64,000 bases of DNA from Ostreococcus lucimarinus (taxonomy: Eukaryota): the NCBI GenBank assembly GCA_000092065.1, contig CP000583.1; one strand, 5' to 3'. Position numbers and translations under genes: made by a program. Under the pieces are notes generated by a model. The model made no database searches. It was not told where the DNA came from and saw nothing but the letters and a program-made list of their open reading frames with translations. Shown one piece after another: positions 27,071 to 61,327 of this stretch (the stretch's first letter is position 1; each line of letters starts with the position of its first letter).

Positions 27071-29716
27071 ATGACGTCGTCCGCGTCGGCGATGTTTGCG
27101 CACGCGACGACGGGCGCGCGCGGCGCGTCGACGGTGCGCGCGCGCGCGAGGACGTCGGTGACGACGACGGGCGCGCGCGCGACGATCGCGCGCGGCGCCG
27201 GGGCGCGGCGAAGCGCGCGCGCGACGGCCGAGGACGGGCGCCGCGATGGAGGGTTTCGTCTCGGGACGGCGACGACGGACGGATGGGCGCGAGCGCGCGC
27301 GATGCGCGGCGAGGGACGAGAGGACAGAGCGGTGATGACGCGCGCGGTGGCGGACGCGGAGGCGGCGCGGGAGGACGACGATAAAAAGTCGCGCGCGAAG
27401 CTCGTGCGAGGGGCGGACGGGAAGTTTTACCGCGAGGGCTCGGAGGGCGGCGGTCGCGGCGGCCGCGGCGGTCGCGGCGGTCGCGGCGGTGGACGCGGTG
27501 GTGGACGCGAAGGTGGACGAGGTGGATTCGGGCGCGGTGCGCGCGGTGGTGCAGGCGGCCGCGGCGATGGGGGTCAACGAAACTTTAGAAACGCGGCCAA
27601 GCCGAGCGGCGGCGGTCGCGCGGGTCGCGGCGGCCGCGGTGGACGACAAGACTTTCGATTCCAAGACGGTCGCAAACCGGGACGCGGCGGTAGACCAAAG
27701 ATGAATATGAGTGGTGCGAGTGGTAGCGATCAAGTGAAACAGCGACGAGGAAGCAAAGCGGCAAAGAGCGCGCAGCGCAAAAAGGCGCTCGAGGAAAACA
27801 GAGCCGTGGCTGTGGAGATTCTCGAAGTTCCCACGGATGGCATGGCGATCGAAGATCTCACCGAACTTCTCGCCACGACGCAAGCGCAAATTATCAAAAC
27901 GCTTTTCATGAAGGGTATCGCGGTTCAAATGGGCCAGTTGCTCGATAAGGAAGCTGTGATTGCCGTGGCTGAGGATATGGAAGTGGAATGGATAGACGAG
28001 GCTGAACAGGGCGTCGCGACGGCGGCAAAGAAGGTGACGCAGTTCTTGAGCGAAGACGACTTCGACTACTTGGTACCGCGAGCACCCGTAGTTACCATCA
28101 TGGGTCACGTCGATCACGGTAAAACATCGCTGTTGGATTACATTCACAAGTCCAAGGTTGCCGCGGGCGAGTCCGGCGGCATCACGCAAGGCATCGGCGC
28201 GTACCAAGTCAGCACCATGGTTGGTGATGAAGAGAAGGATATTACCTTCCTCGACACTCCGGGTCACGAAGCGTTCAGTGCGATGCGTGCTCGTGGTGCG
28301 CGAGTGACGGATATTGCCATAATTATCGTCGCGGCCGACGACGGCGTTCGACCGCAAACGGAAGAGGCTGTATCTCACGCCCGAGCCGCCGACGTTCCGA
28401 TCATCGTCGCCGTCAATAAAATTGACAAAGAAGGCGCGAACGTCGACCGTGTGCGTGATGAACTATCGCGCATCGGTATCATCAGCGAAGAGTGGGGCGG
28501 GGACGTTCCGTTCCTGCCCATCAGCGCCAAGTCTGGCGAAGGTATCGACGAGTTGCTCGAAACTATTTCTCTCACCGCCGAGCTCGCCGAGCTCGTCGCG
28601 AATCCCGATCGCGAAGCTCAAGGTACGGTCATCGAGGCATTCCTCGACAAACAACGTGGTCCGATGGCGACTGTTCTCGTCCAAGCCGGCACTTTGCGCA
28701 TCGGCGATGCGATTCAAATTGGTGGCGCGTATGGCAAAGTGCGCGCAATGGACGACGCAGATGGCACCAAAGTCGAAGAGGCTGGACCATCTATGCCTAT
28801 TCAAATCATGGGCCTCAACGGCGTTCCAGCCGCGGGTGAAGAATTTACCGTCTACGCGTCCGATACCGCGGCTCGTGACAAGGCTGAGCAAGTCCAAAAT
28901 GAGATTCGCAACAACCGCTTGATTGAGGGCAACGTTGTTTCGCTGAGCAACTTGCCGGGCGATGAGGATGGATTACAAAAGATCAATCTCATCGTCAAAA
29001 CAGACGTTAGTGGTTCTTGCGAAGCAGTCAAGGCTGCTCTCAGTGCGTTGCCTCAAGACCGCGTCCAGCTTCGTTTCCTCATGGCCTCTGCAGGCGAAGT
29101 GAGCGAGAGCGACGTCGATTTGGCTTCTGCCTCCGAAGGGATCATCTTGGCTTTCAATACGCCTTGCAGCGACCGAATCGGCGAGATTGCGAAAAAGAGG
29201 AAGGTTGAAGTACGTACTTACGACGTTATCTACGATCTGGTCGATGAAGTTCGTGCGGCAATGGAAGGCATGTTGAGTTCGATCAAGGAAGAAATACCGT
29301 TTGGCAAGGCGACGTGTAAGGCTGTCTTTGGCGGCGGTAAGGCGAAGGTTGCCGGTTGCGAGGTGACTGACGGTTACTTCCAGTCCAAAAAGTACTTGAG
29401 AGTCACTAGAAGGGGCAAAGAAGTGTTCTTCGGTAAGGTCGGCTCACTTCGTCGCGTCAAGGATATCGTCAAGAAGGTTGAGGCTGGCTTAGAATGCGGT
29501 ATCGGCGCCGATCCCGAGTGGGACGGCTTCAAAGCGGGCGACGAACTGGAGTGCTTGGACTTGGTCGATAAGATTCAAACACTCGAAACTGCGAGTGAAA
29601 TTTTGGCAGAACGTGTTGAAGAATACCAAGCTGGTGAGGCCGAGCGTGAAGCCGCGCGAGAAAAGGCCAAGGAAGGTTACCAGCGACAACAACGACGGGC
29701 CGCTCCGTCAAAGTAG
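27071..29716 (+). CDS. Bacterial-type translation initiation factor IF-2 (organellar, probably chloroplast) with transit peptide and RGG/GAR-rich N-terminal extension
   Basis: GTPase domain VVTIMGHVDHGKTSLLDYI...DTPGHEAFSAMRARG...NKIDK, plus the IF-2 C-terminal domains. N-terminus GGGRGGRGGRGGRGGGRGGGREGGRGGFGRGARGG.... ATG at 27071 (MTSSASAMFAH). Confidence 0.85.
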   Translation: MTSSASAMFAHATTGARGASTVRARARTSVTTTGARATIARGAGARRSARATAEDGRRDGGFRLGTATTDGWARARAMRGEGREDRAVMTRAVADAEAAREDDDKKSRAKLVRGADGKFYREGSEGGGRGGRGGRGGRGGGRGGGREGGRGGFGRGARGGAGGRGDGGQRNFRNAAKPSGGGRAGRGGRGGRQDFRFQDGRKPGRGGRPKMNMSGASGSDQVKQRRGSKAAKSAQRKKALEENRAVAVEILEVPTDGMAIEDLTELLATTQAQIIKTLFMKGIAVQMGQLLDKEAVIAVAEDMEVEWIDEAEQGVATAAKKVTQFLSEDDFDYLVPRAPVVTIMGHVDHGKTSLLDYIHKSKVAAGESGGITQGIGAYQVSTMVGDEEKDITFLDTPGHEAFSAMRARGARVTDIAIIIVAADDGVRPQTEEAVSHARAADVPIIVAVNKIDKEGANVDRVRDELSRIGIISEEWGGDVPFLPISAKSGEGIDELLETISLTAELAELVANPDREAQGTVIEAFLDKQRGPMATVLVQAGTLRIGDAIQIGGAYGKVRAMDDADGTKVEEAGPSMPIQIMGLNGVPAAGEEFTVYASDTAARDKAEQVQNEIRNNRLIEGNVVSLSNLPGDEDGLQKINLIVKTDVSGSCEAVKAALSALPQDRVQLRFLMASAGEVSESDVDLASASEGIILAFNTPCSDRIGEIAKKRKVEVRTYDVIYDLVDEVRAAMEGMLSSIKEEIPFGKATCKAVFGGGKAKVAGCEVTDGYFQSKKYLRVTRRGKEVFFGKVGSLRRVKDIVKKVEAGLECGIGADPEWDGFKAGDELECLDLVDKIQTLETASEILAERVEEYQAGEAEREAAREKAKEGYQRQQRRAAPSK

Positions 29717-33183: not shown

Positions 33184-33235
33184 GTACGTCGAGTTCGCGC
33201 GCGTCGACGATGAACGCGTAAACCCTAATCTGTCT

Positions 33236-33811
33236 TTGAACCCTAGACTAACCGCCGACGCCCTCGAACAGACCGACGCGACGGTGGACGCCTTGCGCGG
33301 CATGGTGCATGAGACCACGGGGGGTGTTTTGACTAAAGATAATATCACTTTGAAGCATAAGAGTCGAACGATGGAACCCACTGACGCGCAGTTGGGATCT
33401 TTTGGAGTCCGCGATGGCTCAGACATCGTGCTCATCCTGAACAACGACGGCCAAGGCGTACCCGCGGCACCAACCATGGTGAACACGCAATTTCCGGGTG
33501 AACCCGTGGCGAAGAAGTCCAAAAAAGCGAAGGATAAGGGTGGCGACAAGAAGCGAGAGCGTTTCTCTCAGAGTGAGGCTGAAGATTTGATCAAGGGAGT
33601 TCAATTGTTTGGTTTGGGGCAGTGGGCGCACATTAAAAGTTCCTTTTTCCAGGACACCTCTCGTAGCGGCGTCGACTTGAAGGACAAGTGGCGCAATCTC
33701 GTAACCGCTTCCGAACGACCGCCTGGTTTCAAGTTTCGTGTGGAGTATCTTAACGACGCTTCGTTTTTGGCCCGCGTCGCGCAAGTGAACGCCGAATCTC
33801 AAGCAAAGTGA
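33236..33811 (+). CDS. Ubiquitin-like domain plus single Myb/SANT (telobox-like) DNA-binding protein (main exon)
   Basis: UBL helix and strands LTADALEQTDATVDALRGMVHETTGGVLTKDNITLKHK...DGSDIVLIL. Myb RFSQSEAEDLIKGVQLFGLGQWAHIKSSFFQDTSRSGVDLKDKWRNL. Confidence 0.6.
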   Translation: MNPRLTADALEQTDATVDALRGMVHETTGGVLTKDNITLKHKSRTMEPTDAQLGSFGVRDGSDIVLILNNDGQGVPAAPTMVNTQFPGEPVAKKSKKAKDKGGDKKRERFSQSEAEDLIKGVQLFGLGQWAHIKSSFFQDTSRSGVDLKDKWRNLVTASERPPGFKFRVEYLNDASFLARVAQVNAESQAK

Positions 33812-36692: not shown

Positions 36693-39113
36693 TTAGGCAG
36701 TCGGCGCTCCCGCCGCGACATTTGACCACAACTCGTTGAACGCGTCTGAATTGGTGGAGACGACGCCAAACTTTTCCATTTGCACGGCGTACTCCTTGGC
36801 GTCTAAATATAGCTGACGACAAATCTTGTCTGTGTCGCCCACACCCGTGCTGCTAGTTTTCCCTTGTCGATCTTTAAGACGATTCAGACTTGCCTCAGTC
36901 TTCTTGACCGTCGCCACAAGATCGCTCGCCATTTCAGCGTATCTTTCAGACACGGAATCTACGACCTTATCGACTATTTCTTGTCTCGAAGTCTTAGAAA
37001 ACATTTTTGTGCGCTCATTATCCAAAAATGCTTGCAAGGGAGCGAGAATCGTGGGCACGAAATGACTGTGTCTTGTCGGCATGGGCTTGTTCGTCATGCG
37101 AAATGTGGCGGTGATCCCCTTGAGCTGCTTCAATGATTCAACGCATCTCTCGACGTATACTTTCACGATGAATGCGTCGAGCTGCGGAATAATTTCTTGC
37201 AGCTCGTTTGCGCCTTCTAAGACGCAATCCACCGCGATTTGAGCGGTGTCTTCGCCGAGAATGCTCGTGCTCGCTTTCACGCACGCTGCACCGTCCGAAC
37301 GCACTTTAGCGCACAACTTTTCAACATCCAAGCGCACTAAAATTAACTCATCTCCACCCGCTGTGGCGCCCCAACTAGAAGAAGACGTAACCATGGTGAC
37401 TTTACCTTCTTCAGCATTCGAATCGGAGCTTTGCTGAACAGATAAAGCCTCGATGCCGGCTTTCACCCAAGTTCTATATCGCGACAACACCTGCGCAAAC
37501 AGTCTAATAAATTTGTCCGTGAGGGCTGGAACGAAGACTTCCTCCGCCATGCATTTCGCCATCGTCAGCCATGTTTGCGTTGTCGGTGTGAGTAAAAATC
37601 CATCGCTCGCTCGCGAGGTATCAAGACCCGGCTCGTTCAGCTCTTCATCGACATCGCAAGCAAACTCTTGGAAGCGCAAATTAAAGTACACCGAAAGATT
37701 CCACCTCTTCATGTACGATTCCAAGTACCTGGACGCCCGGAAATGATTCAATGACGCCATCGTTGGTGCGAGATCTTCTAATATATCCACAAACTTCATC
37801 GCCGCGCGATAGTTCTTGATGAAATCCTGTGGGATTCCCGGCGAGTACGCTTTCTCAAAAGCTGAACTCAGTTGCGAATCAACCTCTGCGAGTACAGTTC
37901 CAGCGAGAAAGTCGTGCGACTGTAGGCCCGATTCGGCGACTCGCGTAAGATCAAGTACGTAAGAGCACGATGTAAGCGCAGTTTCACTTAGTTTTGGCAA
38001 CACTGACGCAAAATCTTCCTCGGCAATCGATTCAAGCGTCTTCTCCACCGCTGGGCGGATCAATACAGTTCGAATCGCGCTTTCCACAACGTCAAACTTC
38101 CCGATCGCGGTGCAACCGTGCAAGCAATGACTTATAACGTTCGCGTTCTTTTCTTTTAAACCATCGATGAGCGCAGTTTGCGCCAAAGAAGTGAGCTTCA
38201 ACTCGCAATACTCGATTCGGTCGGCGAGGTCTCGAATCGCCGAAAGATCTTTTCCTTGCTTTTGGTAAAACTTTAAGCGATTTACTTCGCTCGAAATGCG
38301 ATCGAGCATCCGCGCGCGCTCGTTCACATCTCCACTGATGTGCTCTCGATGCATATCGTCCGTTTCAGCTCCGCTCGGCGTCGCTTGATCGTCCTCAAAC
38401 GCTGGAGCCAACATCTCCAAGCCTTCGCGATCCTCCGCGCCGATCACCACCGAGGCGAGTAAGTCTCCAGCTCTCTCCCCACCCGTCGCACCATCGCTCG
38501 CCGATGACTTTCCACCGACGACATCTAACTCTCCGAGCAATCGCTCAACCTTTGAAACCGTATGTCCGCACTCATCCGCCAGGCGCTTGCTCGCGCTCGC
38601 GCGCGCCTGCGCCTCTCGCTCCTCCGCGCTCGCCTCCAACCGTTCCAGCGCTCGCACGATTTCCTCCCTCCCCTCGCTCACCTCTCGTTTCGTCTCAATC
38701 TGTCCCGGCATTATTTTATCCCTCAACTCCGCGTAATCCCTCAGATCATCCCCGAGCGACGCAAACTCCTCGTAGTTTTCGTTCACCAGTCGCTCCAGCG
38801 CCTCGCGCGTCTCCCGCTCGTGCCCGTCCAGCGCCTCCCTCAGCGTTTCCGATCCCACGAACGTCGTGATCTCCTCCACGTACTCCCACGGATCGAAATC
38901 ATCCCTCTCGAACGCCCGCGCGTCGAACCACGTCGGCCTTCCATCGCGCGCGTCGTCGAGATCGCCCGTCCCGTTCGCCTTCGCGACGCTCGCGTCGTCG
39001 TCGTCGTCGTCGTCGTCGTCCCGCCGTCGTCGTATGCGCACGTCCTCGTCGTCGCTCGACGTCGTCGTCGTCGTTCGCGCGTCGTCCTCGTCGCCGTCCA
39101 TCGCCGCCGTCAT
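36693..39113 (-). CDS. COG2: Conserved oligomeric Golgi complex subunit 2 (COG2)-like
   Basis: N-terminal COG2 pattern FERDDFDPWEYVEEITTFVGSETLREAL...LVNENYEEFASLGDDLRDYAE. Acidic Asp-rich N-terminus. ATG at 39113. Confidence 0.6.
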   Translation of the reverse strand: MTAAMDGDEDDARTTTTTSSDDEDVRIRRRRDDDDDDDDDASVAKANGTGDLDDARDGRPTWFDARAFERDDFDPWEYVEEITTFVGSETLREALDGHERETREALERLVNENYEEFASLGDDLRDYAELRDKIMPGQIETKREVSEGREEIVRALERLEASAEEREAQARASASKRLADECGHTVSKVERLLGELDVVGGKSSASDGATGGERAGDLLASVVIGAEDREGLEMLAPAFEDDQATPSGAETDDMHREHISGDVNERARMLDRISSEVNRLKFYQKQGKDLSAIRDLADRIEYCELKLTSLAQTALIDGLKEKNANVISHCLHGCTAIGKFDVVESAIRTVLIRPAVEKTLESIAEEDFASVLPKLSETALTSCSYVLDLTRVAESGLQSHDFLAGTVLAEVDSQLSSAFEKAYSPGIPQDFIKNYRAAMKFVDILEDLAPTMASLNHFRASRYLESYMKRWNLSVYFNLRFQEFACDVDEELNEPGLDTSRASDGFLLTPTTQTWLTMAKCMAEEVFVPALTDKFIRLFAQVLSRYRTWVKAGIEALSVQQSSDSNAEEGKVTMVTSSSSWGATAGGDELILVRLDVEKLCAKVRSDGAACVKASTSILGEDTAQIAVDCVLEGANELQEIIPQLDAFIVKVYVERCVESLKQLKGITATFRMTNKPMPTRHSHFVPTILAPLQAFLDNERTKMFSKTSRQEIVDKVVDSVSERYAEMASDLVATVKKTEASLNRLKDRQGKTSSTGVGDTDKICRQLYLDAKEYAVQMEKFGVVSTNSDAFNELWSNVAAGAPTA

Positions 39114-46345: not shown

Positions 46346-46635
46346 CGTGTGTCTCGTTCGGGCGTGCTTCGAACGCGAGGACGCGCGTCGTCGTGTGCCG
46401 ACGCGCGAGGGGCAAAATCATCTTTTGCGGGTGACGTTGTCAAAAAATCGGCGAATCAGGACTCGCCGATTTAGGACATCGCGACTGGGGACTTATCTGG
46501 GCGTCGCGAGACGCGCTCGGATTACAATTGAGTTGGTAAATGATCGCGAACGCGTGCGGTTGAGACTAAGACGCGCGCGAGCGATGCGCTCGATTCGATT
46601 GTCAATTTGCCGTTGTACACGGCGCGGGTGGAAGT

Positions 46636-49460
46636 TTACCGAATGGCGTCGGCGACGAGTTGGGCTTGCTCTTGCGCGTGCACGGCGGCGTACCCGGTTG
46701 CGGGCGAAGACGCGGGTTTGCGACCAGCGTAGCGCGTTTCGCCCGATCGACCGAGGTCTTTGAACAACGTACTCATTCTCGGTTGGACGTGCCACCACGC
46801 GCCCATGTTCATCGGTTCCTCTTGGCACCAAACAACTTCGGCATTCGGGTAACGCTTCAATTCGCGCTTGACGAGATCCCACGGGAACGGCGCGAGTTGT
46901 TCGATGCGGCAGATTTTCACCCTGTCGATGTTCTTCGCCGCATCGCGTTCGTCGTCGAGATCGTAGTAAACCTTTCCGGAGCAGAAGATGACTCTTTCCA
47001 CCTCATTCTCCGCAGGAGAGTCCATGCTGCGCGACTTCGAAGTCTTGTCCATGATAAGTCGCTTGAAGCGAACGCCTTGAAGTGAATCGTTGTCGTCGCT
47101 GTTATCGAACTCGCTGATATCGGAGACCGCTTTCGGATGACGCAATAGATTCTTCGGGCTCATCACGACGAGCGGCTTGCGGAATTCACGATGAACCTGT
47201 CGGCGCAACATGTGGAAATAGTTTGCGGGCGTGGTGACGTTGCAAATTTGCCAGTTGCATTCTTGCAACTGCGTGCGGCGTTCCATTTCCATCTCAGGGA
47301 TCTGCGTCGGATCTTCGTCAGCCATTTGCAAGAAACGTTCAAGTCGAGCGCTACTGTGCTCGGGACCTTGTCCGTCGTAACCATGCGGAAGAAGTAGCGT
47401 GAGACCGCTTTGACGTAACCACTTTGCCTCACCGCTGCTGATAAATTGATCGATGATGACTTGAGCCGTATTCGAGAAATCACCAAACTGCGCTTCCCAT
47501 AAGATCAAACAGTTGGGATGCTCAAGAGAGTAGCCAAGTTCGAAACCGAGCACACCGTACTCGGACAAAGAAGAGTTGCAAACCGTGAAGAAGTTCTGAC
47601 CTCGACCCGGGTTGCCGCTGTAGACGTTTCGCAAAGGAATGAAACGCTCGCCCGTGATTTGATCATGAATCAGCGCGTGACGATGAGAAAAAGTGCCACG
47701 CTCGACATCTTGTCCAGACAAACGCACATGGTTGCCTTCATCGAGTAAAGAAGCGAACGCCAAAGCTTCGCCCATGGCCCAATCGATACCGTTGCCGTTT
47801 TCAATCATGGCGCGACGATTTTCATAAACGCGCTTCACGACTCGATGTGGTGTAAATCCCGCAGGAATCGCGGTGATAAGTTGTCCGAGATTCTTTATGT
47901 GATCCATCGGTAAGCCAGTGTCTGCGATGCGCGAAAGCTGATCCGGGCTCTTGAAACCTTGCCAATGCGATGCGAGCCAGTCACGTTGCTTCGGAACATA
48001 GTCCTTTGACGCCGTGAACTCCTCTTCCATAATGTTATTGATCTTTTCCTTCATGCTGACGAAGTCTTCCGGGGTGATGATGCCTTCGTTGACGAGTTTG
48101 GCGCTATATTTCGTCAAAACACTGGGATGTTGCTGAATCACCTTGTACATAAGAGGTTGCGTGAACATGGGTTCATCAATCTCGTTGTGACCGTATTTGC
48201 GATAGCACACGATGTCGACTACGGCGTCCGTCTTCCATTTCATTCTCCATTCGGTGGCGAGTTCCATGACCCACGCCACCGCTTCCACGTCATCACCGTT
48301 AACGTGAAACACTGGAACTTCCATGCCCTTAGCTACATCGGTGCAGTAAGCGCTCGAGCGTGAGTACTTTGGATCAGTCGTAAAGGCGACTTGGTTGTTC
48401 ACGACGATGTGCAAAGTCCCACCGACGCTGTACTCGGGCAATTTGCTCATGTCAAGCGTCTCGTACACAATCCCTTGACCACTGAAAGCACCGTCACCGT
48501 GCAGCAAGATAGGCATAGAACGATCGCCGTTCGGATCTTTCGTGTAGAACTGCTTCGCACGAGTCTTTCCAGTAACCACCGTGTTTACCGCCTCAAGATG
48601 CGATGGATTCGCAACCAAGGAAAGATGGATTTGACCGCCGCGTAACGTCGGACGATCGAACGAAGTCCCGAGATGATATTTCACATCGCCTGATCCAGTA
48701 TACTGCGATTCCGTGTTCGGTAACTCGTCCACGAGTTTTGGACCACCCTTAAACTCGTTGAAAATCGTTTGAAGCGGTTTGCGCACGACGTTCGCGAGCA
48801 CATTTAAACGACCGCGGTGCGGCATACCGATCGTGATAGCTTCAACCCCCATCTCGGCCGCCTTATCGATCGCTTCCTTAAATCCAGGCACGAGGCTTTC
48901 ACAACCTTCCAAACCGAATCGCTTCGCTGCGCTGTACTTGTTGGACAAGAAACCTTCGAAAAGTTCGCCCCAAGCTAAGCGGTCCAAAATAATTTGTTTC
49001 CGTTCCGGCGAATACTGCTTCTTGCGCTCGGTCTCGATTTTCGCTCGAAGCCAGTTACATTGCTCACGATCTTGAATATGCATGTACTCGTAGCCCACCG
49101 TGCCGCAGTACGTCTCTTTGAGCCTGGTCAAGATTTGACGCAACGTCTGCACCGGACGGTCTTCGCTCAAGAAGCCCTTCATTTTCCAAGTTCCAATAAA
49201 GAAATCTCGATCCATATCGTCTTCCGTGAACCCGTACAGGCTTGGATCGAGAGAGATTGGCATCTCACGCTCATCAAGCGCCAATGGATCGAGATTGGCG
49301 ATGCTATGTCCGCTAATTTGATACGAGCGGATCAACATCATCAACCGCATGGATTCCTGAATCGTTTGCGCGTCCAACGGTCGCCCCACAGCCATAGGCG
49401 CCGTACCCGTCGACATCGCGGTGTACATTTCAGATATTTCAGCTCCACTCACGCCCGCAT
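46636..49460 (-). CDS. OGDH: 2-oxoglutarate dehydrogenase E1 component, exon 2
   Basis: 938-aa ORF collinear with OGDH E1 (TPP-binding and transketolase-like domains). Joined to exon 1 through a 164-nt intron. Confidence 0.85.
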
Positions 49461-49624
49461 CTGTTTACGCGAAAAAATGCACGGAATTCTCGTCAGTCTT
49501 CGTTCGCTCCGAATTTGGATTGGTCCGCCAACCGAATTGAGGGAATTGAATCGCGCGCCGTTCCAGTTCGCCTTCAAAACCTCATCCTCGCCGTCTCGCG
49601 CATCCATCGACGATCGCTACGTAC

Positions 49625-50045
49625 CCATCTGTCTCAACAACGACGCCCACGATTCCGGTACGCTCTTCGGATCCTTCCTGTACTCGTCCTCCATCGCCTC
49701 CAAGTACGCCGCGCTCGAGGCGTTTAAAAAGTCATCCCTCATCTCTCGATTCGGCGTCGGTTTCGGCGGCGCCACGCTCGCGCTCGCCTTCGATCGCGCG
49801 AACACCGCTTCAGCCATATTTTCACGCGTCGCTCGTTCGCCGTGAACGCGCGCGCACGCCGACGCGGGCATCATTCGTCGCGGAGAATTCGCCAACGACA
49901 TCAATCCGCGACGGCACGGCGCGATCGGCGCGCGCGTCGTCGCCGTTCGCGCGGCGCACGCGGCGCGCGCGCGATCGAACGCGCGCGCGACGCTCGGCGA
50001 TGCGAGCGCGCGGATGACGCGTCGACGCGCGTGCGACGACGACAT
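49625..50045 (-). CDS. OGDH: 2-oxoglutarate dehydrogenase E1, exon 1 (transit peptide plus conserved N-terminal motif)
   Basis: FLNASSAAYLEAMEDEYRKDPKSVPESWASLL matches the OGDH N-terminal box FLSGxSSxYVEEMYxAWLENPKSVHKSW. The exon ends CAGATGG|GTACGT (phase 1). The acceptor is AAACAG at 49463..49461, with CTGAC 33 nt upstream. Confidence 0.6.
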
Positions 50046-50214
50046 GGTCGACTCGCCGCGCTCGCAGCGAGCGGTTCGTTATGCCGTGCCGCCCGTCGCG
50101 CTCGGGTGGTTGACCAGACAGACGGACGACGGCTCGCGCGAGGGCTCGCGCGACGGCGAGACGTCCGATGACGAAAGTGATCGAGCGATGACACTGGAAG
50201 AAAAAAAATACTTA

Positions 50215-51315
50215 TCACTTTTTGGCGAACACGCCTTGGTATAAATAGACGGCGACGATGCTCGCGGAAACGGCGAGCGCGCCGACGTAGTTGTAGACGC
50301 CGCCGCTCGCGTTTTCCAGTTGCGCGGCGGTCGGGGAGAGCGCGGTGGCGGCGCCGAAGGTGTAGATGGTCATCCAATCGATCAATGCGATCGATGCGGC
50401 TATGGATAGATTGAGTTTTTTGAACGTGCCGCCGCCCAAGCGACCGCGCTTGGCGGCGTCAATGAGTATGTACTGCGTCGGCGCGAGAAGAAAAACCGTC
50501 GCGAGACCGAACGCGCGTTGAATCAGTTGCGAGCTCGGTTCCATCTCGTTCACGATAGCCAACGGTGAAAGCGGGCTGAAGGCGAAAGAGCCACCAACGA
50601 CGAGGCTAGTCCAGAACGAAACCTTGTAGAAGAGCTCGAGATAGCCACCCGTTTCGGAGCGCTCGTTGAGGTTCTTCGCTTCTGCGAAATCTTTGCCTAC
50701 GCGCGCCCACGTCTCGTCGTGTCCCGGGCCGTATTCTCGAATCGCCTTCACACTCGTCGCGAACGCCGGCGCGAACGTCACCAAGAGTCCGCCCACCGCC
50801 GCCGCGTTCGGTCCCGTCTCGCCCGTCGCCTGACTTTGTAAGTACGCGCCTAAGAAAGCCACTGCGAAGCTTCCCGTGAACAAAACCATCGCCAGCGCCA
50901 ATCGCTGATACGTCTCCGAATTCAACCGACTATTCTTCGCCGCGTCTGCGAGCGTGTACAACGCCGTGAGCGCGATCAAAGCGAACGCATCCGTCCCAAA
51001 GGCGTTACTAAAGTGCTGCACGCTCGCGAGGCTCGAAAAGCTTTGTCCAAACAGCGGCGTCGCGCACTCCAACCCGAGCCCATTCGTCACGAGCGCGCTC
51101 GGATACGCCAAAGTCGCAAGCGTGGGCACACCCATGGCGATCGCCGAGGCGATAAACGCGCCCTCCTCGCCGCCGTCGTTCGTTTTCGATGAAGATGACG
51201 AAGACGCGCGGTTGGCGGTAATCATCCGTCCCACGCGCGCGCCTCCTCGCGCGATCACGCGTTTCGGCTCGACGCGCGATCGCGCGTGACATCGCGCGTC
51301 GATCACCGCGCGCAT
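50215..51315 (-). CDS. Polytopic membrane protein with an internal duplication (two similar hydrophobic modules), possible transit peptide
   Basis: Repeated modules FALIALTALYTLADAAKNSRLNSETYQRLALAMVLFTGSF and FLLAPTQYILIDAAKRGRLGGGTFKKLNLSIAASIALIDW. ATG tentatively at 51315. Confidence 0.45.
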   Translation of the reverse strand: MRAVIDARCHARSRVEPKRVIARGGARVGRMITANRASSSSSSKTNDGGEEGAFIASAIAMGVPTLATLAYPSALVTNGLGLECATPLFGQSFSSLASVQHFSNAFGTDAFALIALTALYTLADAAKNSRLNSETYQRLALAMVLFTGSFAVAFLGAYLQSQATGETGPNAAAVGGLLVTFAPAFATSVKAIREYGPGHDETWARVGKDFAEAKNLNERSETGGYLELFYKVSFWTSLVVGGSFAFSPLSPLAIVNEMEPSSQLIQRAFGLATVFLLAPTQYILIDAAKRGRLGGGTFKKLNLSIAASIALIDWMTIYTFGAATALSPTAAQLENASGGVYNYVGALAVSASIVAVYLYQGVFAKK

Positions 51316-51407
51316 GCTCGTTGACGCCGGTCGAGACGCCGCGCGCGTCTGTGCCGCACACGTCGACGCGCGGCGACGACGCTCAACGCTTTGCCGCGTC
51401 GACGACG

Positions 51408-52394
51408 ATGTCCAACTACCCGACGTCGACGCAGAAGAGCTTTTGGCTGTACGACACGCACGAGGACGTGCGCGCGGCGCGCGAGGAGACGCGCGCGACG
51501 ACGCTGAAGAGTGCGACTTTGAACGATGATGGAGAATCCACATCGGCGAAAACGGTGGAGAAGGACGCGTTGACGAGCGAGGAAGAGCGATTGATCCTGC
51601 GGTATCACGAACATAAGATTCAGACGATATGCGCGGCGTTTGTGCTGCCGCGAAAGGTGAAGAGCACGGCGGTGATGTTGTTTAAGAGGTTCACGCTGCG
51701 ACACGGCGTCGGAGCGCACAGCCTGAAGATTATCATGTTGACGAGCATATACGTCGCGTGTAAGGTTGAGGAGAGTTACATCAGCGCTGATGAGTTTTGC
51801 AAAGGGGTGAGAGAGGATCCGGCGCGAGTGCTCGCGGCGGAGGTGACGTTTTTGTCGGGATTGAAGTTTCAGCTCGTGTGCTACGGCGCCGCTCGACCGC
51901 TCGACGGGTTCCTCAGAGACGTGGAAGATGGAGGGTGTAAGGTCACAGGCGCACAGCTTGTGGCGTGCCGAAAGAGCGCTTTAGAGACGATCGATGCGTT
52001 GATGCTCACGGATGTTCCTTTAGTGCGTCCTCCGGGACAAATCGCACTGTGCGCGCTTCGTCGCGCTGCGCGCCAAGCCGAGGCAACGGACCTTGTCGAG
52101 TATTGTGAAGCCGTCGGTGCGCGCGCGACGGGGATCGTCAAAGCGCCCAAGGGGGCGTTGTTGAAGGGCATTTTAGATGAGATCGAGACGCACGTCGAGG
52201 ACGGCACTGAGCCCGACGAGGCGGTGGTGAAGAAGATCGACAAAAAGCTCAAACTGTGGCGAGCAAAGTACGTCGCGGCGAGCAAGGCGACGGCGGAGGA
52301 CGAAGCGAAGAAGACCGAGCGCGACGCCAAACGACGAAAGAGCGAACAATTTCGCCAAGAAATGATCGCTGCCGAGGAGGACGCATTAGGATGA
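51408..52394 (+). CDS. CCNH: Cyclin H (CDK-activating kinase cyclin)
   Basis: MSNYPTSTQKSFWLY..., KSTAVMLFKRFTLRHG, LKIIMLTSIYVACKVEE are collinear with human CCNH (MYHNSSQKRHWTF..., VGTACMYFKRFYLNNS, IIMLTCAFLACKVDE). ATG at 51408. Confidence 0.75.
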   Translation: MSNYPTSTQKSFWLYDTHEDVRAAREETRATTLKSATLNDDGESTSAKTVEKDALTSEEERLILRYHEHKIQTICAAFVLPRKVKSTAVMLFKRFTLRHGVGAHSLKIIMLTSIYVACKVEESYISADEFCKGVREDPARVLAAEVTFLSGLKFQLVCYGAARPLDGFLRDVEDGGCKVTGAQLVACRKSALETIDALMLTDVPLVRPPGQIALCALRRAARQAEATDLVEYCEAVGARATGIVKAPKGALLKGILDEIETHVEDGTEPDEAVVKKIDKKLKLWRAKYVAASKATAEDEAKKTERDAKRRKSEQFRQEMIAAEEDALG

Positions 52395-53068
52395 CGCGCT
52401 CGCTAAATGCACTTTGCTTTAATATACTTCAATAGCTCTGCGCACGCTGAGGTTAACTCACTCCACAACTTCGCGCGCGTGTGTCGTGCGCGCGCGCGCG
52501 CGGACGTCAAAAAGCGCTCACCAGTCGAAAGGACACGCGCGGATGTATTAACGCACGTGGCGTGCGCATCGCCCGCAGAGTACGTCGTTCGCATTCCTCT
52601 TCCGCGTTCGCGCCGCCTCTCCTCTCAACAAGCGAACTTACCCCCGCCTCGGCGTCTTTCATCGCCGTTGGCGGTTTTTCAACCTCGCAAAACTAAAGAT
52701 GGATTTTTTAGGACACCTCCGAGAAACACTTTGGAGCCTCTCCCTGTACAACACCGCGTCGGCGACGAATTAACTCGGTCGAGGTTGGTGTGCCACGGGG
52801 CTACATTCTGCGTGTCGAACTTTTTTTGTTGTTCTCATTCAGCGTCGAATCGTCGCGAGCGTGCGTTCGATGTGCGTGGCGTTCGATCAACTGACAAGTT
52901 TCGTGTGTCTTATTCGCGTTCATTCGTGCAGGTCGACGCACGCGGAATCGGCGTCGACGCGTCCACACGCGTCCACTCGCGTCCACTTGATTTATTTGTA
53001 ATTTGTAACAACCCACTGTAAGCTATAGTGCGCTCCTAATACAATGTCGTCTAATCTATATGCTCGCG

Positions 53069-59671: not shown

Positions 59672-61327
59672 CTAAGGGTAACGGACGCGATGCACGGTTA
59701 ATTGAAGGGATTTCTTGACGAGCGCGAAGCGCTCGCGGCGGTTGCCAGACGCGAAGGCGTCGAAGACGTCGTCGAGGTGGTCCAAGGAGAGGTGCGGAAA
59801 GATGGATAAGACGCGCTCATAGTCCAAATTCTGTGTGCGTTCGCGCAGACGTTCGAACGCGAGGGCGGGAGCGATGATGATGATATTCTTGGCCGAAGTC
59901 GTGCACATGGGCTGGTCAGCGACGCAAACGCCCTTGGAAGTGGCGGCGAGGAGGAGTTCCCGCACGTCATCGACGCTCGCGCCGGCGGCGTCATAGACCG
60001 AAACGAGATCGGACTCACCGCTCGATTGGGCGAGAATCGAGAGCGGGGGTGAATATGTCTTCCAGAATAGCGCGAAGCGTCCGCTCGAGCCGCCATCGAA
60101 TGCGGCATCTGTTTTCGCTAGAGTTCGCATCGAGCGCACGACTCCGCCTTGATGTAATACGCCAAATAAACACGCCAATAGCGCGTTAATTGCGATCCAG
60201 ATCGCGAACAATCGCCGCTTTCGAGAAACTAATGTACTTCTCGAGTAGTGCGCCGCCAAGACGCACATAGGAAGAATCATCGGCGTCAGAAATCGAGGCT
60301 CTTGATGCGGCGCAAGCGAAAGCGCCGCGAGAGGAAACAAAACACTCGCCCAAAGAGTTCGCACGATTAAATCTCTCGACGATGCGTCTCGTCTTCTTCG
60401 CATCAGTGCACTGAGACTGACGAGCCACAGCACGCTGAACATCAAAGGACCATTGACGAGGACGTGCAAATACCTAGGATGTAAACCGTGCCGCGCTAAG
60501 TTATCGGCGTTGACGTTATATCTGAACGAGTTCCACGGCGTGATGATCCAGTTCTTTGACGTCCAAACCCACACATTGAGCATATTCGTATCGCTAAAGT
60601 ATGCCGTGTCGATCACGATGCACACCACCGCGGTGAGAATCGCCGCCATCGCACCACTCCAAACGCCGACCAACATCGTCAGTGGCGACTTTTCTCGCGC
60701 TCTCGCAACCACATACACCGCCCAAGGCGCGATGAACGCACCGCTCGTAAACCTTATAAAACTACTCACCATCCCTATCGTGCCGATAGCGACACAGCGC
60801 GAGACGGGTCCTAAATACTTGCGTTCAGTTGTCGCGACAAGCGCGCAAGCCGCTGTCGCATATGTCTCCAAAGAATTACTAAAAGGCCGAACGAGCAGCA
60901 CTAAAGTCACCCAAGATGTCGCAAACAATACACCCGCTTCATTCACCGCCCCAGTCGTCGCCGATCCCACCGCCCTCGCGCACGATACCACCGCCAAGTC
61001 AACCGTAGCCGACGCCGCGCACAGCGCCAACCGCGGCGCATACGTCGTCACCCACGATACGTCTAACGCGGCGCCCGTCGCCCGCGCGATCGCGCACGCG
61101 ATGAGATACGATAATCCACTACTCGCGTACGCGCCTAAGATTGATCTTGCGGGCGCGTCGGCGGTGTATTCCCACGGCAACTGCGTCTCTGTCCCGAACA
61201 CGTTCGCAGCGGTGACTTCGTTGGATTGAAACCACTCATCCGGATGGACGTATCCAGGCGCGAACGCAAACGCGAGTCTCAAGAGTGCGAGACCGACAAG
61301 CGTGGCGCGCGCGAGGGTCTCACCCAT
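59672..61327 (-). CDS. GT22-family mannosyltransferase (GPI mannosyltransferase PIG-Z/SMP3-like)
   Basis: Signature HPDEWFQSNEV near the N-terminus. Multi-TM protein. ATG at 61327. Confidence 0.65.
   Translation of the reverse strand: MGETLARATLVGLALLRLAFAFAPGYVHPDEWFQSNEVTAANVFGTETQLPWEYTADAPARSILGAYASSGLSYLIACAIARATGAALDVSWVTTYAPRLALCAASATVDLAVVSCARAVGSATTGAVNEAGVLFATSWVTLVLLVRPFSNSLETYATAACALVATTERKYLGPVSRCVAIGTIGMVSSFIRFTSGAFIAPWAVYVVARAREKSPLTMLVGVWSGAMAAILTAVVCIVIDTAYFSDTNMLNVWVWTSKNWIITPWNSFRYNVNADNLARHGLHPRYLHVLVNGPLMFSVLWLVSLSALMRRRRDASSRDLIVRTLWASVLFPLAALSLAPHQEPRFLTPMILPMCVLAAHYSRSTLVSRKRRLFAIWIAINALLACLFGVLHQGGVVRSMRTLAKTDAAFDGGSSGRFALFWKTYSPPLSILAQSSGESDLVSVYDAAGASVDDVRELLLAATSKGVCVADQPMCTTSAKNIIIIAPALAFERLRERTQNLDYERVLSIFPHLSLDHLDDVFDAFASGNRRERFALVKKSLQLTVHRVRYP

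Follow-up and report, generated by a model that had tools for sequence, protein, structure and literature searches.

The locus described here lies in a 64,000-nucleotide stretch of the Ostreococcus lucimarinus genome (contig CP000583.1), which we call the window in the following and whose numbering is used throughout. It holds what is almost certainly the nuclear gene for the mitochondrial 2-oxoglutarate dehydrogenase E1 (OGDH) of strain CCE9901, encoded on the minus strand and split by one spliceosomal intron. In a listing of open reading frames (ORFs), this gene appears as two entries: a 938-aa ORF at 46636..49452 (-), in which the first in-frame start-type codon is GTG, and an ATG-initiated 142-aa ORF at 49617..50045 (-), with 164 nt between them. 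The original prediction had pointed out both, an OGDH reading frame of 938 aa beginning at a non-ATG codon and a 142-aa ORF upstream of it, and had proposed that a 164-nt intron divides the gene at this point. The elements of the gene are as follows.

46486..50087, minus strand: OGDH (2-oxoglutarate dehydrogenase E1) transcription unit, defined by six transcript contigs
50046..50087, minus strand: short 5' untranslated region without an upstream ATG, with ATAACGAACCGCTCGCTGCGAGCGCGGCGAGTCGACC before the first ATG at 50045
49625..50045, minus strand: coding part of exon 1, 421 nt, residues 1-140 and base 1 of codon 141
49770..50045, minus strand: putative mitochondrial presequence, about residues 1-92, Arg/Ala/Ser-rich, assigned from composition and poor conservation
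49625..49736, minus strand: conserved OGDH N-terminal box (Pfam PF16078), residues 104-141, DFLNASSAAYLEAMEDEYRKDPKSVPESWASLLRQM
49461..49624, minus strand: U2-type GT-AG spliceosomal intron, 164 nt, phase 1, 53% GC, from sequence and transcripts
49618..49624, minus strand: 5' splice site GTACGTA, donor GT at 49624-49623
49491..49498, minus strand: branch-point motif GACTGACG, by motif match, presumed branch A at 49493
49461..49477, minus strand: 3' splice region TTTTTTCGCGTAAACAG, T-run at 49477-49472, acceptor AG at 49462-49461
46636..49460, minus strand: coding part of exon 2, 2825 nt, bases 2-3 of codon 141 to residue 1081
46638-46636, minus strand: stop codon, included in the coding part of exon 2

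The two coding parts (421 + 2825 nt) add up to a length divisible by three and join into a stop-free ORF of 1081 aa. The codon split by the intron, G/AT, encodes Asp141, and the intron is hence in phase 1; that joining restores the frame across a phase-1 intron had also been predicted. Base composition is uneven along the gene: the presequence-coding stretch at 49818-50045 (-), 228 nt in length, has 72% GC and a GC3 of 78%, compared with 52% GC and a GC3 of 61% in exon 2 (46636-49460).

The evidence for splicing comes from six transcript contigs (L001-L006) of 3.0-3.5 kb, which occur in the five SRA runs SRR11178176, SRR28369223, SRR28369019, SRR33975909 and SRR33975910 and in the JGI sample IMG 3300020013. 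They represent environmental or related strains with 99.8% nucleotide identity rather than demonstrably CCE9901 itself. In BLASTN comparisons with the window, all six yield two collinear blocks at 99.6-100%, of which the first ends at 49625 and the second resumes at 49461, so that exactly the predicted interval, 49624..49461, is skipped in six out of six. The blocks overlap by one nucleotide, a shared G, but the junction is canonical under the GT-AG placement only, and the GT-AG rule thus resolves this ambiguity. The fusion is also visible in the proteins encoded on these contigs (P0001, P0002 and P0003), where the N-terminal box is joined to the catalytic body through ...ESWASLLRQMDAGVSGAEISEM..., the predicted junction. 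An exhaustive search for GT/GC..AG pairs returned the 164-nt interval as the sole junction that reproduces the transcript proteins; its other rows are artefacts at the end of the extracted region. Outside 49624..49461, transcripts and genome correspond without interruption and no further introns were found in OGDH, which therefore has one intron only.

These conclusions require that the contigs derive from RNA, and we take them as such from contig features alone, namely poly(A), adaptor and mRNA-sized ends. Three of them (L002, L003 and L004) carry terminal runs of 22-24 A's, located at 46486 or 46498, while the genome at these sites continues with AGTCGCG... and AGATAAG...; since the terminal A-runs have no genomic counterpart, they are non-templated poly(A) tails. 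The two addition sites lie 12 nt apart, with 46498 used in L003 and L004 and 46486 in L002. At its 5' end, L002 carries TGGTATCAACGCAGAGTACGGG, the SMART template-switch oligo. Poly(A) tails and adaptor together identify the contigs as cDNAs. The 5' ends of the transcripts fall between 50087 and 50054 (-), and as the contigs are collinear from about 50087 to 46498/46486, the upstream ORF resides in the same mRNA as the 938-aa ORF. Neither unspliced transcripts nor a separate transcript for the upstream ORF, the two findings that the original prediction had named as speaking against it, were seen: six contigs skip the interval, and the contigs span both ORFs.

Could these contigs instead be genomic intron-less alleles or retrocopies, which would leave splicing undemonstrated? 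Precisely intron-less orthologues do occur on genomic contigs of sister species, and the library types are known to us from the features of the contigs rather than from metadata. However, all six contigs start and stop at mRNA-like boundaries without any flanking gene sequence, three bear non-genomic A's at defined sites, and one begins with the SMART oligo. Furthermore, wherever a near-identical copy sits on a long genomic contig (10 kb to 983 kb), its ORF is split, so that the fused contigs do not reflect a common intron-less allele. We therefore consider this explanation extremely improbable. A still smaller chance, close to nil, is left for the idea that two separate genes are present, or that the gap reflects a faulty assembly, a frameshift artefact or a lesion in a pseudogene. 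While metagenome catalogues, built with prokaryote-style gene callers, do list the 142-aa and the 930/938-aa proteins apart, a single mRNA spans both ORFs, and dozens of independent assemblies, as well as five other species with canonical splice signals, show the same architecture. The interval 49624..49461 is thus an intron that is excised from mature, polyadenylated OGDH mRNA.

At its donor side, the minus strand reads ...AGACAGATGG/GTACGTAG..., or in a longer view ...TTGAGACAGATGG/GTACGTAGCG... at 49625/49624, in agreement with the predicted end of exon 1 at CAGATGG/GTACGT. At the acceptor side it reads ...GCATTTTTTCGCGTAAACAG/ATGCGG..., and in a longer view ...GACTGACGAGAATTCCGTGCATTTTTTCGCGTAAACAG/ATGCGGGCGTGAGT... 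at 49461/49460. The intron accordingly reads GTACGT...AACAG, opening with GT and closing with AG. The motif CTGAC, which had been placed 33 nt upstream of the acceptor boundary, is contained in GACTGACG (49498..49491); the presumed branch A at 49493 lies 33 nt before the first base of exon 2, with 32 nt in between. Judged from this motif match, A49493 would be the adenosine used in splicing. If the intron were read through, translation would meet an in-frame TAG two codons in, and one may speculate that regulated intron retention could tune OGDH output.

We also considered a functional RNA, such as a snoRNA, within the intron and rejected it. In an Rfam E-value scan covering 49300-50200, no family fell into the intron, the intron does not fold more stably than shuffled sequences (z = 0.29), and a comparison of orthologous introns found nothing in common beyond the splice signals. 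Matches to symR and Mcr7 fall into the GC-rich exon 1 and are at chance level, far under their gathering scores (28 bits against 61 for symR). Apart from such chance matches, the GC-rich presequence-coding stretch also yields long shadow ORFs on both strands.

On the protein level, the four OGDH domains are distributed over the two ORFs. The 2-oxogl_dehyd_N domain (PF16078) is found in the upstream ORF only, well beyond chance (residues 104-141; E-value 1.6e-12; 47 bits, with the cut-off at 27), while E1_dh, Transket_pyr and OxoGdeHyase_C are found in the 938-aa ORF only. This is the distribution that had been predicted, with the N-terminal box missing from the long ORF and present in the short one, and after exon joining all four domains exceed their Pfam cut-offs. 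The joined protein was aligned over its N-terminal region with six chlorophyte orthologues, from O. tauri, O. mediterraneus, the P0060 organism (86% identical), a Micromonas-like alga, the P0084 organism and Cymbomonas. The alignment, a check that the original prediction had suggested, is free of gaps across the junction and has invariant columns in the N-terminal box. By its domains and homology, the joined 1081-aa protein would thus be a 2-oxoglutarate dehydrogenase E1 (OGDH/SucA).

N-terminal to the box, the protein has an unusual composition. Residues 1-76 comprise 16 Arg, no Lys, one Asp and two Glu, amounting to a net charge of +13 with 61% R+A+S+T; for comparison, the net charge over residues 101-200 is -7. 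This segment is unconserved between species, and conservation begins at PKPTPNREM. Arg-rich, acid-poor and unconserved N-terminal segments are the standard signature of mitochondrial matrix presequences, and the Arg-rich segment of exon 1 probably directs mitochondrial import. The transit peptide that had been placed on the upstream exon thereby gains the support of this composition and of a start region in common with O. tauri, while targeting itself stays at the level of a deduction.

Translation most likely starts at Met1. All 5'-complete transcripts have their first AUG at 50045, in frame and followed by no stop, and the resulting N-terminus, MSSSHARRR, aligns with the start of the O. tauri protein, MTLAIARRR; scanning and orthologue alignment therefore both point to a product of 1081 aa. 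It has to be weighed against the possibility that the splice is correct but translation begins at Met77 (MAEAVF...), with the stretch for the first 76 residues serving as 5' untranslated region. This start was chosen both in RefSeq and by prokaryote-style gene callers on the transcript contigs. Yet it would bypass the first AUG of each 5'-complete transcript, treat a segment of classic presequence composition as untranslated, ignore the start region M-x-x-x-x-ARRR that the P0060 ORF shares with the O. tauri reference model, and leave only about 16 residues before PKPTPNREM as a targeting signal. We regard it as unlikely and retain Met1 in the following.

As for the N-terminal box, the corresponding region (PF16078) of characterized OGDH complexes docks E1 to the E2/E3 core. 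Given this role, a product of exon 2 only would be expected to be neither imported nor assembled, and the upstream exon may well be indispensable to OGDH, to the extent that the established docking role and the presumed import apply here.

The gene is already present in public databases as a 'predicted protein' of 994 aa (XP_001416923.1 / ABO95216.1 / A4RUA4) on a record of 982,987 bp, with one intron modelled. That it is the same gene is clear from the exon-2 protein of A4RUA4, which is identical to that of the window, including strain-specific residues at which environmental variants differ. Its intron, which an exhaustive GT..AG search recovers as a unique solution, is a different one.

49448..49644, minus strand: intron implied by RefSeq, 197 nt, phase 2, GC/GTCGTT...GTGAG/T

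Compared with the transcript-proven 164-nt intron, the 197-nt model loses the residues SLLRQMDAGVS. The RefSeq protein (P0126) reads ...ESWAGAEISEM..., or more fully ...KSVPESWAGAEISEM..., and shows an 11-column gap against all aligned orthologues in the N-terminal region. One could argue that 49644..49448 is the true junction or at least a significant isoform, as ...ESWAGAEISEM... is reproduced by one GT..AG pair and the splice is formally legal. Against this, the 49644/49448 junction is missing from all six transcript contigs, the 11 deleted residues are found in all Mamiellales orthologues, intron-less ones included, and the donor GTCGTT is unlike the strict 5' splice site consensus of this genome. 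The 197-nt intron is thus very unlikely to be used and seems to stem from an erroneous ab initio prediction. By the transcripts, the RefSeq/UniProt OGDH model is wrong in its intron bounds, and the 164-nt intron takes its place. The model differs at its N-terminus, too: it starts at Met77 (49817) and omits 76 presequence residues of the transcript-supported 1081-aa product. Since A4RUA4 lacks 11 residues in the region of the N-terminal box and 76 at the N-terminus, it would mislead localization prediction, phylogeny and models of E1-E2 docking, and the direct value of our analysis lies in the curation of this reference protein.

A related problem affects metagenome catalogues. Searching with the joined sequence yields hundreds of protein entries at 99-100% identity. 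Among the catalogue entries (P0004-P0079, P0121) are dozens of 'complete' OGDH proteins of 919, 930 or 938 aa, and a 142-aa orphan entry is present on 96 contigs. These 919-938-aa and 142-aa entries result spuriously from applying prokaryote-style gene calling to a gene with a eukaryotic intron, a practice that loads databases with truncated picoeukaryote OGDH and orphan fragments.

To place the intron in an evolutionary context, we compared it with the corresponding gene region in relatives. In five further genomes, an intron interrupts the same codon, likewise in phase 1.

L007 2316..2468: O. mediterraneus, 153 nt, with GTACGT and TACTAAC
L009 2276..2492: Micromonas-like, 217 nt, with GTGCGT
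L019 2238..2468: Micromonas-like, 231 nt, with branch motif GACTGACG
L017 619..707: Cymbomonas tetramitiformis, 89 nt
L015 919..1129: Coccomyxa sp. Obi, 211 nt

The donors of these introns are GTACGT in O. mediterraneus and GTGCG(T/C) in the Micromonas-like, Cymbomonas and Coccomyxa genes. The intron in L009 was read directly from the sequence, with one residue differing from the MMETSP protein, and the labels 'Micromonas-like' and 'clade-B-like' were assigned from GC content and a single-gene tree. As position and phase coincide in Mamiellales, Cymbomonas and Coccomyxa, the intron is older than the split between these sampled chlorophyte lineages. In the OGDH gene of Populus (L016), the first 260 codons contain no intron.

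O. tauri (L013), the P0060 organism (L011, L012) and the P0084 organism (L018) precisely lack the intron: their syntenic genomic contigs run straight through the site as CAGATGGAC or CAGTTGGAT. In a neighbour-joining protein tree, O. lucimarinus pairs with the P0060 organism, followed by O. tauri and then O. mediterraneus, i.e. ((O. lucimarinus, P0060), O. tauri), O. mediterraneus. Taken as a lead, this single-gene tree with its metagenomic relatives would imply that the intron was lost precisely and independently at least twice within Ostreococcus. The P0084 lineage would require a third loss, because L019, which belongs to the same 90% protein-identity cluster, keeps the intron. We lean towards the view that at least three separate, base-precise excisions took place in Mamiellales (O. 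tauri, P0060 and the P0084 lineage), while neighbouring lineages kept strong splice signals. If this holds on the species tree, OGDH would offer a compact natural setting in which to study how an intron is precisely and repeatedly lost and, possibly, how selection keeps it in a highly streamlined genome. In any case, the recurrent precise loss in sister lineages provides a small, clean data point for intron-loss studies.

The order of cyclin, a 350-442-aa ORF, OGDH, Oxa1/60KD_IMP and AP2 is largely conserved among the relatives. The downstream Oxa1-AP2 pair is found in five relatives other than O. tauri, and the upstream cyclin in Ostreococcus-level loci only. In the window, the two upstream genes are the following.

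50215-51543, minus strand: 442-aa ORF upstream of OGDH, with counterparts in relatives that have no recorded Pfam match
51321-52394, plus strand: cyclin upstream of OGDH, syntenic with L007, L011 and L013

Between the stop codon of the 442-aa ORF and the start of the OGDH transcript lie about 128 nt.

Taken together, we propose that the gene is expressed as follows. Transcription of the minus strand would begin near 50087, and the mRNA would receive its poly(A) tail at 46498 or 46486. A U2-type spliceosome would then excise 49624..49461, guided by the GTACGTA donor, the GACTGACG branch motif, the short T-run and the AG acceptor, and thereby complete codon 141 (G/AT, Asp) to give a single 1081-aa ORF from the first AUG at 50045. 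To the product, exon 1 would contribute the Arg-rich presequence, probably for mitochondrial import, as well as the PF16078 box, which from established knowledge would mediate the docking of E1 to the E2/E3 core, and exon 2 would contribute the ThDP-dependent catalytic body. The intron itself would be an ancient chlorophyte intron that has been retained here and precisely lost in several sister lineages.

How does this gene compare with known systems? Among the closest known proteins is its orthologue, the OGDH E1 of O. tauri (XP_003078135.2 / CEF97097.1, 1077 aa), which shares 85% identity, the same four Pfam domains and the same start region. The O. tauri neighbourhood is shared as well, with the cyclin, an ORF of about 350 aa and OGDH, and with Oxa1 two genes further on. 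Unlike that of O. lucimarinus, however, the O. tauri gene is intron-less, its genomic contig reading CAGATGGACTCC across the intron position.

Among solved structures, the joined protein matches human mitochondrial OGDH (PDB 7WGR, 8I0K) at an E-value of about 1e-278 and E. coli SucA (2JGD) at about 1e-226. The catalytic body is similar over its full length to both of these characterized enzymes, and the predicted function is that of a ThDP-dependent 2-oxoglutarate decarboxylase in an E1-E2-E3 complex. The alignment with SucA starts at query residue 104 and covers the N-terminal box, whereas those with the human chains, which were solved without the region of the box, begin at residues 172-181. 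The algal presequence is the gene's own and is unrelated to human OGDH and E. coli SucA.

The intron, finally, can be compared with the 560 EST-confirmed O. lucimarinus introns analysed by Irimia and Roy (2008; PMC2483917). In this dataset, introns outside chromosome 2 have a strong and atypical 5' splice site, GTGCGTG, and the confirmed ones among them contain ACTGAC in 87% and the extended GACTGACG in 66.5% of cases; the mean intron length in the genome is 168 nt (PMC2483917). With its GT-AG termini and an exact GACTGACG, the OGDH intron resembles this non-chromosome-2 class in its signals, and its 164 nt are near the reported mean. Its donor, GTACGTA, fits the generic GTRNGT but differs from the consensus at positions +3 and +7. 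The GACTGACG motif occurs six times in the window, on both strands, compared with about 2.2 occurrences expected from shuffles. A crude window scan for GT[GA]CGT ... ACTGAC ... AG returned eight candidate introns that may belong to other genes, five on the plus strand (29210-29383, 33184-33407, 37955-38036, 52861-52931 and 59835-60430) and three on the minus strand (60741-60657, 18809-18467 and 7047-6882).

The OGDH intron had been called the clearest template for the intron grammar of this genome. This stands for the branch motif, which is exact, but not for the donor, which is a variant, and the grammar had been published before (PMC2483917). What we add is small, namely a transcript-proven correction of the intron bounds in the gene model along with a probable one of its start codon, a case of recurrent precise intron loss, and a reminder of how catalogue entries become truncated. 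The OGDH intron is an ordinary, ancient, textbook spliceosomal intron in an annotated gene, with splice signals that were described in 2008, and is best seen as a good example of that published grammar rather than its archetype.
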